64,000 nt of DNA from Verrucomicrobiales bacterium (GTDB lineage Bacteria > Verrucomicrobiota > Verrucomicrobiia > Verrucomicrobiales > DEV007). Positions 38,569 to 43,467 of this stretch are shown piece by piece (positions within the stretch are counted from its first letter, which is position 1; every line of letters starts with the position of its first letter). Where the stretch lies: NCBI GenBank assembly GCA_029213265.1, contig JARGNG010000016.1, forward strand, positions 39,295 to 103,294. Reading direction: 5' to 3'. The translations under genes were made by a program, and so were the position numbers. The notes under the pieces are model-generated. The model was not told the origin of the DNA, did not search any database, and saw only the letters and a list, made by a program, of their open reading frames with translations.

Positions 38569-39528
38569 TTGATCAAAAAGATGCCTGCCGATTCCCACAT
38601 TCTCCGTCGAGCCAGCTGGCTGTCCTTCTGGATTGGAGGATTCATGCTCGTGCTGAAATGCGCGGCCTGGTGGATGACCCGCTCCAGTGCGATCCTCAGT
38701 GATGCAGCGGAGTCGATTGTCCATGTAGCGGCCGTGGCCTTTGTCGTTTACAGCCTGCGCCTTTCCCAAAAACCTCCGGATCAGGACCACCCCTACGGCC
38801 ACGCCAAGATTTCCTTTTTCTCCGCCGGTTTTGAAGGCGGCCTGATTTCCATCGCGGGAGTTTTCATCCTTGTCCAGGCGATCCAGCAATGGATCTCCGG
38901 CATCGCACCTCACGATCTCGGTTCCGGAAGCCTGCTCGTAGCGATCGCGCTCGTGATCAACGCCTGGCTCGGTTGGTACTTGGTTCGCCTGGGCAAAAGG
39001 CATGATTCACTCATTCTCGAGGCAAATGGAAACCATGTCCTCGTCGATGCCTGGACCAGTCTCGGGATTCTCGTGGGATTGCTTCTCACCTGGCTGGCCG
39101 GTTGGCCCTGGCTGGATCCCCTCTGCGCCATCCTCGTTTCCATTCATATTCTCCGGAATGGAATCGGTCTGCTCTGGCGAAGCGCCAACGGATTGATGGA
39201 CCGGGCCGATCCGGAAATTCAGAAGTCTCTTATGGAGGTCCTCGATCGCGAAACGGAAAAATCCGGAATCTCCTGGCACCAACTCCGGCAACGACATCTC
39301 GGAGACGGGCACTGGGTGGACTTTCACCTGGTCTTTGAGGATGAAACCACGGTCCGGGATGCGCATGAAGTGGCATCGAGGATCGAGCAAGAGGTCCGCG
39401 ACGAGTTGGGAGCATCTACGGTTGTGACCAGTCATCTCGAACCTGCGGATGATCATGAGCGGATTCATGGGCATGCCCCCGGTGAGCCCGTCCCGGATCC
39501 GCTCAGTGGCCGCCCCCTCCCTGATTGA
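38569..39528 (+). CDS. Cation diffusion facilitator (FieF-like) transporter
   Basis: SDAAESIVH, HPYGHAK, ANGNHVLVD, AHEVAS. Confidence 0.92.
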   Translation: MIKKMPADSHILRRASWLSFWIGGFMLVLKCAAWWMTRSSAILSDAAESIVHVAAVAFVVYSLRLSQKPPDQDHPYGHAKISFFSAGFEGGLISIAGVFILVQAIQQWISGIAPHDLGSGSLLVAIALVINAWLGWYLVRLGKRHDSLILEANGNHVLVDAWTSLGILVGLLLTWLAGWPWLDPLCAILVSIHILRNGIGLLWRSANGLMDRADPEIQKSLMEVLDRETEKSGISWHQLRQRHLGDGHWVDFHLVFEDETTVRDAHEVASRIEQEVRDELGASTVVTSHLEPADDHERIHGHAPGEPVPDPLSGRPLPD

Positions 39529-39541
39529 TTCAATCAGTTCA

Positions 39542-39589
39542 CTATAGTAATGGATCGGAGCTTGACTTTACTATAGAGTAGTGTAAGGT
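39542..39589 (+). promoter_or_regulatory. Sigma70-like promoter overlapped by a 9-bp inverted repeat
   Basis: TTGACT (39562-67), N16, TAAGGT (39584-89); CTATAGTAA (39542-50) / TTACTATAG (39568-76) brackets the -35. Confidence 0.55.
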
Positions 39590-39609
39590 CCCCGGAGAAA
39601 AATATTCAA

Positions 39610-39819
39610 ATGGTAATACGTAGTAACAGATTTATGCAGACATCGACATCTGGTCGGTGGGAGGGCCATCGTGCCCCCATGCAACTTCTCTATCTCCGTA
39701 GTCAGTTGAATCATAGGGACCCAAATCCTGAGGATTGTTTGATTGGTAAGGAGCTGAACGCTGATTTTGGAGCGTTTTCCGACACCGGGAAGAACGAAGG
39801 GAGGGCCAGGTTTACGTAG
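39610..39819 (+). CDS. Small ORF (69 aa), possible leader of the RNA locus
   Basis: Lies between the promoter and a terminator; no recognisable family. Confidence 0.35.
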   Translation: MVIRSNRFMQTSTSGRWEGHRAPMQLLYLRSQLNHRDPNPEDCLIGKELNADFGAFSDTGKNEGRARFT

Positions 39820-39848
39820 TGAATTCGTAACAGAATTCCATGGTCGTG

Positions 39849-39879
39849 AACCCGCTCTCCGAAAGGAAGCGGGTTTTTT
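39849..39879 (+). terminator. Intrinsic terminator/attenuator ahead of the RNA array
   Basis: AACCCGCT-CTCC-GAAA-GGA-AGCGGGTT followed by TTTT. Confidence 0.8.
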
Positions 39880-39959
39880 GTTGTGTAACCCATTGAAAAT
39901 CAATGGAAAGTAGGGGCTGGAACAGGGCTGCGATACGAAAAAGAAGAACAAAAATATGA

Positions 39960-40466
39960 AAAGCCCGCCGCCAGGTGAGACTGACGACGGGCCGATGAAA
40001 GCGAAGGATCAATGGGATTGATCGCTTGCTCACGCAAGAGAAACGATAGCGTTCTATTTCAATCGGTCAAGTAAAGCAGGGCTGGTTGCCTGCTCGCCGG
40101 ACAGTTGTGTCCGGTAGTAACGAACTTCGCCTTCTATGAAAACTTTATGTAGTAAAATCTGAAGGCTTTTTGGGAGATGTGCCTGCGAAACATCGAAACG
40201 TCCGCCGGGAAAGCCTGCGGCTGTCTCACTGGAGAGGCAACGGTGTTCGTTCTTTATATGGGATGAAAATGACCGCGCAGGCTCCAGTTGAGACTGTTTG
40301 AGTCGTCCAGTGGAATTCACTGGCGACATGGTTCCGTTTTCGCTCCGGTCGCCGGAAGAGACTTAAAAGAAAAGCAGGTCTAGTCCCCTGTGGCAATCCG
40401 CCGGAAGTTGAGATGGAATTCCAGACTCTCAAAACGGCCTGAATGCGTTTTCATTTTCATCCCCAT
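39960..40466 (+). ncRNA. Large multi-domain structured RNA candidate (GOLLD-like by recollection)
   Basis: More than 10 local hairpins plus long-range helices 40119-125/40245-251, 40260-272/40451-463 (13 bp perfect) and 40334-340/40431-437. Confidence 0.65.
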
Positions 40467-40469
40467 TGC

Positions 40470-40543
40470 ATGTCGTAGCACCAGAAGTGCAGGGCAGTCT
40501 CCAAAACTGTCGCGGCCCGGGGCAGCACCGGGGCGGCTTGCCA
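40470..40543 (+). tRNA. tRNA-Trp(CCA)-like, non-canonical T-loop
   Basis: Acceptor ATGTCGT/GCGGCTT, G73, encoded CCA; anticodon loop CT-CCA-AA; T arm CCCGG-GGCAGCA-CCGGG. Confidence 0.7.
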
Positions 40544-40570
40544 TTTCTTCTCGCGGTTTTACCGCGGTAG

Positions 40571-40630
40571 AAAGTGGAAAGGTGAAAGGTTCCAATCGGA
40601 TTGGAACAGTTTTTCACTTTCCCACTTTTT
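40571..40630 (+). terminator. Long imperfect hairpin plus T-run after tRNA-Trp
   Basis: AAAGTGG/CCACTTT, GTGAAA/TTTCAC, GTTCCAA/TTGGAAC stacked stems, then T-run. Confidence 0.5.
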
Positions 40631-40748
40631 AGATGTAGCTCCGGCTATGCCGGAAGCTCGATGAAGTCGAGACGAATGAAACGGCGGTTCATCCGGGGGA
40701 GCAGCGAATCCGCCGCCTCCGGCCGGTAGGAGCATTTCGAAATCCTTT

Positions 40749-40822
40749 ACCAGTCTAGCTGAGACAGATTAGCGTGTCGTTGAAGGCGATGAGAGGTCGG
40801 TGCAATTCCGACGGCTGGTGCC
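40749..40822 (+). tRNA. tRNA-Phe(GAA)-like, non-canonical T-loop
   Basis: Acceptor ACCAGTC/GGCTGGT; D stem GCTG/TAGC; loop TT-GAA-GG; T arm GTCGG-TGCAATT-CCGAC; 3' G-CC. Confidence 0.65.
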
Positions 40823-40832
40823 TTTGAGCGAT

Positions 40833-40964
40833 ATCCCCGTGGTGTAAGAGAAGCATAACGTTCTGCGCGCCGTGCGTAACGAGACTGATTGCTCTCTGAG
40901 CAACCCGAAGGGCAGCATTGCAGTCAAGGTGTCGGATCAGGTGCAAATCCTGGCATGGATACCA
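40833..40964 (+). tRNA. tRNA-like gene with a 58-nt structured insertion in the anticodon loop
   Basis: Acceptor ATCCCCG/CATGGAT (2 mismatches), A73-CCA; D arm GTGT/GCAT; AC stem ACGTT/GGTGT around a 65-nt loop CT...AA; T arm TCAGG-TGCAAAT-CCTGG. Confidence 0.55.
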
Positions 40965-40971
40965 TCTCAAT

Positions 40972-41046
40972 TCCTCTGAAGCATTTACAGTGATGCACCG
41001 GCCTTTTAATCCGGTGAAGAAGGGGCAGTACCTTCCGGGGGAACCA
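40972..41046 (+). tRNA. tRNA-Lys(TTT)-like, non-canonical T-loop
   Basis: Acceptor TCCTCTG/CGGGGGA, A73-CCA; D stem GCAT/ATGC; loop CT-TTT-AA; T arm GAAGG-GGCAGTA-CCTTC. Confidence 0.7.
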
Positions 41047-41179
41047 ATTTTCAGGACCTGAAGAAATACGGCGGACTCGTCGCGTAGGCAATTTGCGCGG
41101 CCCGCTTAGAAAGTCGATTTCAGGCATTCAACACTCAACTTTGAACGTGCATCTCTGAACGGTGCACGTTCTCCAGATC

Positions 41180-41254
41180 CCAGTCGTGGTGTAATCAGCA
41201 GCATTCTACCCTGTGAAGGTAGCGGAGCGGGTGCAAATCCCGTCGACCGGACCA
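41180..41254 (+). tRNA. tRNA-His(GTG)-like, lacking G-1/C73
   Basis: Acceptor CCAGTCG/CGACCGG, A73-CCA; CTACC-CT-GTG-AA-GGTAG; T arm GCGGG-TGCAAAT-CCCGT. Confidence 0.72.
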
Positions 41255-41302
41255 TCTTACAAACTCTTTTCCAGAAGGGAGGCATAGAGTTCCTTCGTCC
41301 TC

Positions 41303-41325
41303 ATAACGGTCTTAAGGTAGCGAAA
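41303..41325 (+). other. 23-nt 23S rRNA-like segment (E. coli 1916-1938, one mismatch)
   Basis: ATAACGGTCTTAAGGTAGCGAAA versus conserved ATAACGGTCCTAAGGTAGCGAAA. Confidence 0.8.
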
Positions 41326-41464
41326 ATCGAGCGGTCGATTCAGCGATCAAGCCCTCGAGACGATGAAATTTCTCGAACAGGCATTCGTGCCTTCGTTCGG
41401 GAGATCGAGTCGATTTCTTTGTAGCCATACCCTCCGGAATCCACCTTCGGATTTCGGATTGATA

Positions 41465-41519
41465 GGAAAGGAGGTGGTGGGCCGGCGCATGAGTGCCGGC
41501 CCGTTCCCTTCCTTTTTCC
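41465..41519 (+). promoter_or_regulatory. Long hairpin sequestering a 10-nt Shine-Dalgarno and an ATG
   Basis: GGAAAGGAGG...GGGCCGGC-GCATGAGT-GCCGGCCC...CCCTTCCTTTTTCC. Confidence 0.45.
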
Positions 41520-41595
41520 TCAAAAAAAACTCGTTTACAAACTGTTACGAAATTCAATTTTGAACTAAAACCAAACCAACTCATCTTATATCACC

Positions 41596-42183
41596 ATGAG
41601 CGCTTCGATCTTGCATCAGAATATCGTTCTGGTTCTCAACCGGAACTGGCAGGCGATCAATACGAGAACCCCTGCCGAAGCTTTCTGCCAAATGGCGACC
41701 GATACCGCGACTGCGCTCGATATCCAGGGCACGGACTTTATGGTCCCCACGAAGTGGAATGACTGGCAGAAGCTGGAAGTCCGCGAGGGCGATGCCAGCA
41801 TCGGGACGGCGCATGGACGAATCCGTGTTCCGACCGTAATTGTTGTCGCCAACTTTGCCAAGGTGCCGAAGAAGCGGCCTAAGTTCAATTCCCGAAATAT
41901 CTGGGAACGCGATGGCGGACGGTGCCAATACACGGGACGGAATCTTCGTCCCGGCGAAGGCAACATCGACCATGTCCTGCCGCGCTCGCGCGGCGGAGAC
42001 ACTACCTGGGAAAACTGTGTTCTTGCCGCTCGCGAGGTGAATTCGCGCAAAGCTGACAAGACTCCGGAAGAAGCGGGCTTGCGATTGCGGAAGGCCCCGA
42101 GGACTCCGCCGGAACTCCCTGTCACGATGTTGCTGCGAAACGTGCACGATATCTCTGACTGGGACCCGTTCCTTCCCGGGTAG
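41596..42183 (+). CDS. HNH endonuclease (McrA/HNH_5-like, tRNA-array type)
   Basis: VLVLNRNWQAI, RVPTVIV, NIWERDGGRCQYTG, IDHVLPRSRGGDTTWENCV, NSRKADKTPEEAG. Confidence 0.9.
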   Translation: MSASILHQNIVLVLNRNWQAINTRTPAEAFCQMATDTATALDIQGTDFMVPTKWNDWQKLEVREGDASIGTAHGRIRVPTVIVVANFAKVPKKRPKFNSRNIWERDGGRCQYTGRNLRPGEGNIDHVLPRSRGGDTTWENCVLAAREVNSRKADKTPEEAGLRLRKAPRTPPELPVTMLLRNVHDISDWDPFLPG

Positions 42184-42342
42184 GCTGTAGCCGGCCCCGG
42201 CGAGGCCGGAAGGACGTAAATGAGTTCCCTCAGCACTCCTTCCCGGCTCGAAGATCCGGGCAACGACTCTGTGCGGAAACACTTTCACTGTCGCGCGGTC
42301 TCGAAGGGCGTCCCGTAGAGATCCCGCTTCTTGGCAGGAAAA

Positions 42343-42414
42343 CACAAGGTAGCTCACTGGTAGACCCTCAGACTGATACTCTGATTGTAGCCGGTTCGAT
42401 TCCGGCCCTGGTTT
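42343..42414 (+). tRNA. Degenerate tRNA-Ile(GAT)-like (pseudo-tRNA)
   Basis: TCAGA-CT-GAT-AC-TCTGA; canonical T arm GCCGG-TTCGATT-CCGGC; mismatched acceptor and D stems; no CCA. Confidence 0.55.
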
Positions 42415-42433
42415 GGAAAACCCGAAAACAAAC

Positions 42434-42687: not shown

Positions 42688-43467
42688 ATGGAAACTGTAA
42701 TCACCATCGCAACCATCGTTGCGGCAATCGCCCTCTGGGCGGCTTCTGTGAAGCTGGTGAACGACTACGTCGAAACCGTAACGATCTGGGACTACCAGAC
42801 CGGGCTCCACTTCAAGAACGGGTGCTATCTCGAATCTCTTGAGGCGGGAAAGCATCGTCTCTGGGGGCGCGGACATTCCGTGATTGTCTTCGATCAACGT
42901 GCTTTCGAACTGGTGGTTCAGAGACAGGAACTGATCACGAGCGACAGCGCGACCGTGAAGCTGACCGCCGTTACCCAGTGGAAAATCGCTGATGCCCTGA
43001 AGTTTCATCTCGGAGTCGATAACGCCCACCAGGCGCTTTACACGCTGGTGCAACTGGCAATGCGTCGGGTTATCGGTGGCCTCGATCTCGATGCGGTGAT
43101 CGAACAGAAAGCGGACTTCGGGAAAACGCTTCTCAAGGAAGTGAAGGGGGACGCGTTCGAAGAACTCGGAATCGGGGTGGGCCGAATTGAAATTCGCGAT
43201 GTGATGCTGAGCGGAGAGCTGAAAAGTTCCTACGCCGGAGTGATCACAGCTCGTAAAGAGGCTCAGGCCCAGCAGGAGCGTGCTCGCGGTGACGCGGCGG
43301 CTCTGCGAACCTTCGCCAACGCGGCTCGAGTCTACGAAAACAACCCGGAGCTCTTCCGCCTGCGTTACCTCGAAACGCTGAAGGAGGCAGGGACCGGATA
43401 CGGAAAGCAGCTCATCATCGGAGTTCCTGAGGAACTGATGGGGCTGGTGAAGAAATCAAACGAATAA
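42688..43467 (+). CDS. Slipin / SPFH (Band 7) domain protein
   Basis: N-terminal TM; LEAGKHRLW, QELITSDSATVKL, IRDVMLSG, AAALRTFANAARVYENNPELFRLRYLETL. Confidence 0.88.
   Translation: METVITIATIVAAIALWAASVKLVNDYVETVTIWDYQTGLHFKNGCYLESLEAGKHRLWGRGHSVIVFDQRAFELVVQRQELITSDSATVKLTAVTQWKIADALKFHLGVDNAHQALYTLVQLAMRRVIGGLDLDAVIEQKADFGKTLLKEVKGDAFEELGIGVGRIEIRDVMLSGELKSSYAGVITARKEAQAQQERARGDAAALRTFANAARVYENNPELFRLRYLETLKEAGTGYGKQLIIGVPEELMGLVKKSNE

Follow-up and report, generated by a model that had tools for sequence, protein, structure and literature searches.

A 23S rRNA-like core in a candidate Y-like RNA of Verrucomicrobiales tRNA arrays, and its truncated relic

A 23-nt copy of a 23S ribosomal RNA (rRNA) site in the genome of a Verrucomicrobiales bacterium is very probably what remains of a structured RNA of about 190 nt that was cut short by a deletion. 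Bacterial Y RNAs imitate tRNA. The intact relatives of the truncated RNA look like a sister RNA from the same loci, with the same Ro-type stem and a core of 28 nt identical to one of the best-conserved and functionally richest stretches of 23S, which would suggest that Ro/Y systems display copies of several translation RNAs. The window analysed here is the whole stretch of 64,000 nucleotides from contig JARGNG010000016.1; its own copy is a dead remnant, and the interest lies in the RNA family reached through it. We consider it on balance probable that the intact RNA is a Y RNA paralogue whose tRNA-like module has been replaced by an rRNA-like one, with the window copy as its relic.

The 23S-like word and the RNA family around it

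The word ATAACGGTCTTAAGGTAGCGAAA lies at positions 41,303–41,325 of the window on the forward strand and equals 23S positions 1916–1938 (E. coli numbering) with C1925 changed to U. It occurs only once in the window with up to 3 mismatches allowed, against matches in 0 of 100 shuffles, and only once in the 5.87-Mb, 182-contig assembly with up to 2 mismatches allowed; hence the assembly holds no 23S gene of its own, and genes from 29 relatives' genomes served as the 23S reference. In these genes, from the same genus and the same order, the stretch reads ATAACGGTCCTAAGGTAGCGAAA, then TTCCTTGTCGGG; the tenth base of the word is C and the flanks are ...GGCCGTAACT and TTCCTTGTCGGGTAAG..., different from those in the window. 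The assignment to 1916–1938 with C1925U is therefore correct and the window's flanks are not rRNA, both of which the sequence-only reading had stated from the letters. Collinear similarity to 23S extends over 28 nt at most (in the window, 23 nt including 1 mismatch), and against 23S the flanks do no better than shuffled sequence, so we do not regard the element as a 23S gene or pseudogene fragment. Beyond tRNA–tRNA similarity, no other resemblance to 16S, 23S or 5S rRNA was found in the element or the arrays.

Mis-joining of rRNA reads into the contig has in its favour that the window comes from a 182-contig metagenome bin without its own 23S gene. However, metagenome contigs from three runs in two studies (X1, X2 and X5), including one strain about 8% diverged (X5), have the same flanks, junction and T as the window, which excludes a chimera with rRNA reads, and seven other loci were assembled independently. 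An assembly artefact, named at the outset among the things that would undo the find, is thus practically impossible. One 23S fragment among the relatives (L008, on the 3.7-kb contig C1 of genome G006) has flanks unlike all other relatives' 23S and looks enterobacterial; it is probably contamination of the G006 bin, and the second match of that genome, on C104, is presumably its own 23S.

The segment had been described as isolated, but it is part of a structured RNA of about 190 nt that is truncated in the window. A one-mismatch match in G028 led to the other homologues: seven further ones are found in G028, G315 and G088 of the window's genus, in G335, G338 and G345 of three other genera of the family, and on metagenome contig L135, which makes about eight loci, few and related, in one family of uncultured Verrucomicrobiales. 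The family model R1 scores 158–225 bits in G028, G315, G335, G088 and L135, 66 in G338 and 35 in G345, and the full element is about 180–200 nt long. A junction pattern search allowing 3 mismatches gave mostly chance matches in coding DNA, with G028, G315 and G335 the only real ones. The scan of genome contigs gave 5 loci and that of metagenomes 7, among which L135 alone was both new and real (L136 is the G028 contig again and five failed the model). No Rfam family matched the element, the 28-mer matched only true rRNA in phage and plasmid collections, where no element was found, and no 23S-like piece occurs in the cyanobacterial and mycobacterial HNH-linked arrays.

The question raised with the word, whether it recurs near tRNA arrays and HNH, slipin or TROVE genes, is thus answered by 7 other Verrucomicrobiales loci. 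With one exception the copies form one unit within a same-strand long tRNA array, upstream of a Ro60/TROVE–HNH–slipin block; the exception is the most diverged member, that of G345 (L102, 1501–1663), which lies between Ro and HNH, outside the array. ARAGORN finds 8–25 tRNA genes in the stretches around six copies, and the G338 element starts 1 nt after a tRNA-Lys and ends 9 nt before a tRNA-His. As one array unit, the element would be freed together with the tRNAs by tRNA processing.

The RNAalifold/Infernal structure has nine helices with 58 pairs. Paired cells amount to 91.8%, against 32–48% with the partners slid; double changes are seen at 26 of the pairs, and none of the observed measures was reached in 500 shuffles. 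These covariation and conservation statistics describe seven related sequences in an alignment fitted to the model. The ends of the intact members pair into a long bulged closing stem made up of helices 1 and 2, in which 9 of 17 pairs have changed on both sides, and the fold contains strand-specific G-U pairs. Between this closing stem and a GNRA-capped hairpin lies the core. In the elements of G028, G315 and L135 it is CGUAACUAUAACGGUCCUAAGGUAGCGA, identical to 23S 1909–1936 in 28 of 28 positions; G335 has 2 changes, G088 3, G338 a 2-nt gap and 3 changes, and G345 6. C1925 is invariant in all seven members other than the window's. In sense orientation the core copies the loop and 3' strand of H69 together with the linker that leads into H70. 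No other part of the RNA is as well conserved: identity to G028 is 79–100% in the core against 32–84% elsewhere. Pair by pair, core and rest compare as 100 with 66% (28/28 bases), 93 with 70% (26/28), 100 with 84%, 89 with 62% (25/28), 82 with 52% (23/28) and 79 with 32% (22/28); binomial P values run from 0.008 to 4e-7 for comparisons that are not phylogenetically independent. The lowest values, 22 of 28 core bases and 32% elsewhere, are those of G345.

The core itself has no fold supported by covariation: the RNAalifold hairpin through it (helix 3) shows 0 double changes. A ‘mini-H69’, in which UCGU/ACGG closes the authentic loop AACUAUA, is predicted to form the top 4 bp and 7-nt loop of H69, with pair probabilities of 0–0.69 that make it thermodynamically uncertain. 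Compared with the 23S H69/H70 linker (E. coli 1906–1938, the I-CeuI homing site), to which the best copies are identical at 1909–1936, the element lacks the lower H69 stem, the H70/H71 partner strands and any further rRNA similarity. Before the core stands UUCCUU, similar to the UUCCU of H70 at which MazF-mt6 cleaves; as a mimic of that site it was rejected, being part of the stem motif and varying among members (UUACUU, CUACUU).

The window copy and its surroundings

In the window a cation-efflux gene ends at 39,528 and is followed by about 2 kb without convincing genes but with tRNA-like sequences. The features from there to the slipin gene are:

39,530–41,254, forward strand: decayed long tRNA array of the L-array type, upstream of the 23-mer, with block-by-block homology to the 16-tRNA array in G028
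40,972–41,043, forward: weak tRNA-like match
41,180–41,254, forward: tRNA-His-like gene
41,266–41,338, forward: truncated Y-like RNA with the 23S core, of which the 5' ~75 of ~190 nt remain (model R1, 53 bits)
41,269–41,297, forward: 5' strand of the closing ‘cap’ stem, UUCCAGAAGGGAGGCAUAGAGUUCCUUCG (helices 1 and 2, 9 double-change pairs in intact members)
41,296–41,325, forward: 23S-like core, from comparison with 23S and the family members
41,312, forward: T at the position of C1925 (C in the other seven members and in all relatives' 23S; T fixed in X1, X2 and X5)
41,325–41,340, forward: hairpin AAUCGA-GCGG-UCGAUU (helix 4, 2 pairs with double changes)
41,339–41,347, forward: proposed deletion junction, TTCAGCGAT, from a three-way comparison of the window, the G006 Ro gene and the G028 element
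41,339–41,424, forward: frameshifted Ro60/TROVE remnant, the last 28 codons (aa 452–479) and stop (tblastn with the G006 Ro protein)
41,596–42,183, forward: HNH endonuclease, 195 aa (Pfam HNH_4/HNH), of a family linked to long tRNA arrays
42,342–42,415, forward: tRNA-like gene between HNH and slipin, position conserved in G006
42,688–43,467, forward: slipin (SPFH/Band_7) gene, last conserved member of the Ro–HNH–slipin block

The window copy aligns convincingly with model R1 over the first ~80 model positions only. Its cap strand follows the family consensus ..GCAGUGAGG..N..(U/A)(A/C)CUUCG, and the partner strand (..CC-N4-UUCUC..) is deleted, so the closing stem of the intact members is not present here. 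The GAAGGGA/TTCCTTC pairing that had been drawn before the word corresponds to no helix of the intact family; its bases belong to the 5' strand of the closing stem and have their partners in the deleted 3' half. The AATCGA/TCGATT hairpin drawn after the word is real and conserved, with compensatory GCCGA/UCGGC in G088; its loop is GCGA (GNRA) in 6 of the 7 other members, and G338 has no such hairpin. Within the core, 41,296–41,298 equal 23S 1909–1911 and 41,303–41,325 equal 1916–1938. Positions 41,299–41,302 have diverged (CCUC, against AACU at 23S 1912–1915), and the copy lacks the loop bases A1912, A1913, C1914 and U1915 as well as C1925.

At the left edge of the Ro remnant stands the word TTCAGCGAT, which is common to the window and the 3' end of the Ro gene of G006. 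At this place the G028 element has TTCAGCGAC, with 8 of 9 bases identical (TTCAGCGA, then C):

Window: GGTCGA-TTCAGCGAT-CAAGCC
G006 Ro gene: GGCTGGC-TTCAGCGAT-AAAACC
G028 element: GATCGA-TTCAGCGAC-AGCGG

In G006, from the same genus, the homologous place is occupied by an intact TROVE/Ro60 gene (479 aa), after which come HNH, a tRNA-like gene and slipin. The window retains only the remnant of Ro, matched in two frames owing to a 1-nt loss, and no other Ro was found in its genome (tblastn with the G006 Ro; Pfam TROVE absent from G000). In sequence terms, the simplest reading is a single deletion with a TTCAGCGA repeat at either end: it removed 94% of the Ro gene, the rest of the array and the 3' ~110 nt of the RNA, whose remaining part is now joined to the final 28 Ro codons. 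In runs X1 and X2, relatives that co-occur still carry the undeleted Ro sequence (loose ends at 41,339). The T is present in the 8%-diverged strain of X5, so deletion and T are both old. Apart from the remnant, Ro is lost from the window's genome, and the HNH and slipin genes are intact.

With the 3' half of the RNA and the Ro gene deleted, the window copy is a relic, and we are highly confident of this status and of the anatomy of the RNA. The copy would lack a Ro partner and presumably cannot fold like the family. Decay is the likely origin of C1925U, of the four altered bases in the H69 loop and of the change from GCGA to GCGG, and the losses are consistent with relaxed constraint after truncation. 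In a copy that a deletion has turned into a relic, the C/T difference should not be taken for an allele matched to the host: the other seven members have C, and T is confined to the broken copy. Downstream of the Ro remnant, 41,434–41,530 contains two hairpins, and a T-rich run comes after the second (GGGCCGGCGC..GCCGGCCC); they probably represent the former Ro terminator, at which the array transcript would now end, immediately ahead of HNH.

Kinship with Y RNAs and long tRNA arrays

Model R1 also matches RNAs of 75–170 nt in 10 genomes, through the stem alone: only the first ~25 and last ~20 positions of the model align. On the 5' side these stem-sharing RNAs have a terminal 5–6-bp stem, GCAG(U/C)GAGG, a second short stem and (U/A)(A/C)CUUCG, and on the 3' side ...CC-N4-UUCUC and the stem; some enclose a T-arm and then a D-arm. 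Four of their loci (five places) coincide with Rfam YrlA matches with E values of about 2e-7 to 1e-3 and scores of 31–44 bits, below the Rfam gathering score of 69, and these YrlA-matching RNAs are found immediately upstream of Ro. The element and the YrlA-like RNAs beside Ro have the closing stem GCAGUGAGG…ACUUCG / UUCUC in common. In G335 (L094, 5621–6192), four Y-like RNAs of 125, ~124, 79 and 166 nt stand in tandem between array and Ro; three have the common closing stem around different interiors, and the fourth is an Rfam YrlA match (38 bits).

TROVE is present in all 14 other genomes with model-spanning matches, against 30 of 134 genomes of the family (hypergeometric P = 5e-11), and in 13 of the 14 it lies 0.3–6 kb away on the same contig, the TROVE of G338 being on another contig. 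The intact members themselves are 0.35–5.7 kb from TROVE on the same contig, again with different contigs in G338. The element is optional in this company: 7 of 30 Ro-bearing genomes have a copy.

This shared architecture, stem sequence and genomic company make the element akin to the local Y RNAs, with a different module, a kinship that we regard as probable from the sequences compared. Among the closest known systems are the YrlA-type Y RNAs (RF02553; PMC4201824). They likewise have a long bulged end stem around a variable RNA-imitating module, their genes also stand a few kb at most from Ro60/TROVE in a locus of the RNA-repair type, and the local YrlA-like forms have the stem sequence of the element. 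However, the module of the element is not tRNA-like: with neither a tRNA nor an Rfam YrlA match, and no T-arm/D-arm unit, it measures ~150 nt and consists of the 28-nt sense 23S copy and four other hairpins. The element also lies inside a tRNA array, and its closing stem has no GNCGAA(N)G, the motif that Chen et al. (2014, PMC4201824) put forward for the binding of Rsr. Given the missing tRNA-like module and motif, we name it a Y-like RNA and not a YrlA.

The loci also have the make-up of L-arrays, that is, many same-strand tRNA genes with a linked HNH gene of a conserved family. The arrays of the relatives comprise at least 12 tRNA genes (16 in G028, 25 in G315), and the loci combine 12–25 or more such genes on one strand with homologous HNH and slipin genes and, in G028, RlaP. 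The window's own array is decayed, with 2 tRNAs called by ARAGORN and a third, weak one by Rfam, and no RtcB or TROVE gene was found between 30 and 53 kb in the window. Homologues of its HNH adjoin 19- and 27-tRNA arrays on Calothrix and Mycolicibacterium plasmids, and the protein belongs to the HNH family that PMC8421152, in its account of L-arrays, links to them. According to the same account, which counts Verrucomicrobia among the phyla with long tRNA arrays, inhibition of translation switches on the otherwise silent L-arrays with linked HNH, and the stimuli that do so also induce rtcB (Santamaria-Gomez et al. 2021, PMC8421152); the Anabaena TrcR regulon, as summarized in PMC10272220, includes an L-array-linked HNH, slipin and rtcB. 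In the parts of these two papers that describe them, the published arrays hold tRNA genes and some protein genes and no rRNA-like or Y-like units, whereas here array and Ro/Y RNA locus are fused. The G028 locus runs from the array with the element through Y-like RNAs, TROVE, a 280-aa protein, HNH, a PhyH dioxygenase and slipin, in this order, to an RlaP nucleotidyltransferase. With its PhyH-type dioxygenase, RlaP and the 280-aa protein, which has no Pfam match, this Ro locus (L061, G028:C486, 5000–12000) is an extended RNA-repair-type operon. The family thus joins Ro/Y RNA loci, stress-induced long tRNA arrays and travelling HNH and slipin genes (plus RlaP in G028), whose descriptions have hitherto been separate.

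Possible functions of the 23S-like core

The sequence-only reading had cast the segment as an rRNA mimic or decoy beside tRNA mimics. The direction was right for the intact homologues, which have the conserved 28-nt core, the YrlA-like stem and Ro nearby, but not for the window copy, a truncated relic. In the mechanism that we find plausible for the intact copies, judged from their genes and predicted folds, RNase P and RNase Z would free the RNA from the transcript of the array, Ro would bind it through the closing stem, and the bound RNA would present the H69/H70 strand as a pseudo-substrate or decoy. The outcome could be a gating of Ro's access to 23S rRNA, or the titration of a factor (enzyme, toxin or drug) that reads the stretch. 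A precedent comes from Deinococcus, in which Rsr free of Y RNA matures 23S rRNA and the Y RNA blocks this (PMC4201824). In light of it, the most economical function would be that of a pseudo-substrate or gate for the dealings of Ro with 23S, or of a tether or decoy for a factor.

Mimicry of rRNA as the function is nevertheless a tentative proposal, and a new class of Y RNA, with an effector module that mimics the 23S H69 loop to H70 linker in place of a tRNA, is possible but doubtful. The literature yielded no description of a Y-type RNA with an rRNA-identical module, and nothing pertinent on H69/H70-specific toxins or rRNA-mimicking Y RNAs. If the proposal holds, the response to translational stress that involves tRNA arrays and RNA repair would include a Ro60 ribonucleoprotein that reads, gates or decoys a functional and universally conserved site on the large ribosomal subunit. 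We know of no factor that reads the 1909–1936 strand outside the ribosome, and the core offers a concrete bait sequence for such a partner. Ribosomal-protein leaders that mimic rRNA are also non-ribosomal RNAs that copy an rRNA site to bind its ligand. Unlike the element, they rely on structural mimicry with little sequence identity and sit in mRNA 5' UTRs, and to our knowledge no ribosomal protein binds 1909–1936 as a separate site.

Three other accounts of the core have to be weighed against a Ro-bound mimic. The stretch could act as DNA, either as an I-CeuI-like homing or cleavage site for the adjacent HNH or as a recombination site that mobilises the array, and the 23-mer had indeed been suggested as a target of the HNH nuclease ~270 nt downstream. 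An HNH gene is always in the locus, and the G028 stretch covers 26 of the 27 bases of what we take to be the I-CeuI site. However, Ro–HNH–slipin blocks without the element occur in G009, G035, G230 and G296, and the HNH family accompanies the cyanobacterial and mycobacterial tRNA arrays free of any 23S-like piece. Where both were mapped, element and HNH are elsewhere 0.16–5.5 kb apart (~0.16 kb in G345, ~2.9 kb in L135, ~3.6 kb in G335 and ~5.5 kb in G028), the 270 nt in the window being a by-product of the deletion. The stretch lies within an RNA fold with strand-specific G-U pairs, and the relatives' 23S genes are uninterrupted, with no intron at the site. In the loci compared, HNH thus occurs without the site, and in most intact ones the site lies far from HNH; the HNH-target idea is unsupported, and a DNA-level target appears very unlikely.

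Alternatively, Ro might play no part: the array RNA could titrate a ribosome-binding drug, a modifying enzyme or a toxin directed at the H69/H70 strand, much as extra array tRNAs may buffer stress that targets tRNA, and the closing stem would serve only stability or processing. The sense orientation, the universally conserved site, the standing of the core as the most conserved part and its place in a type of tRNA array induced by translation inhibitors all suit such a decoy. It leaves the strict co-occurrence with Ro and the YrlA-like stem unexplained, the full H69 stem is not reproduced, and no nuclease or toxin specific for 1909–1936 was found in the literature; we rate it as unlikely. A piece of rDNA pasted into a Y-like RNA gene, for example as repair filler, could also persist without a function of its own. 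Exact identity over 28 nt points to copying of rDNA and not to convergence, and the element is rare and optional. Yet the core is far better conserved than the rest, paired regions included, in 4 genera, and the divergent members differ from 23S, so that ongoing conversion by rDNA does not explain the conservation. Neutral capture is in our judgement improbable.

On transcription, a marine metatranscriptome contig (run X25) joins relatives of the units at 40,985–41,044 and 41,199–41,245 with a different spacer, a weak hint that a related array is transcribed; this one run covers only tRNA-like parts of a relative's array and not the element. The second of these units falls in the tRNA-His-like gene (41,180–41,254; 49 bits), which has the T-loop UGCAAAU instead of UUCGAAU, is 94% conserved in G028 and has homologues in L031, L094 and L095. 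The gene contains AAGGUAGCG, a 9-mer in common with the 23S core, probably by chance.
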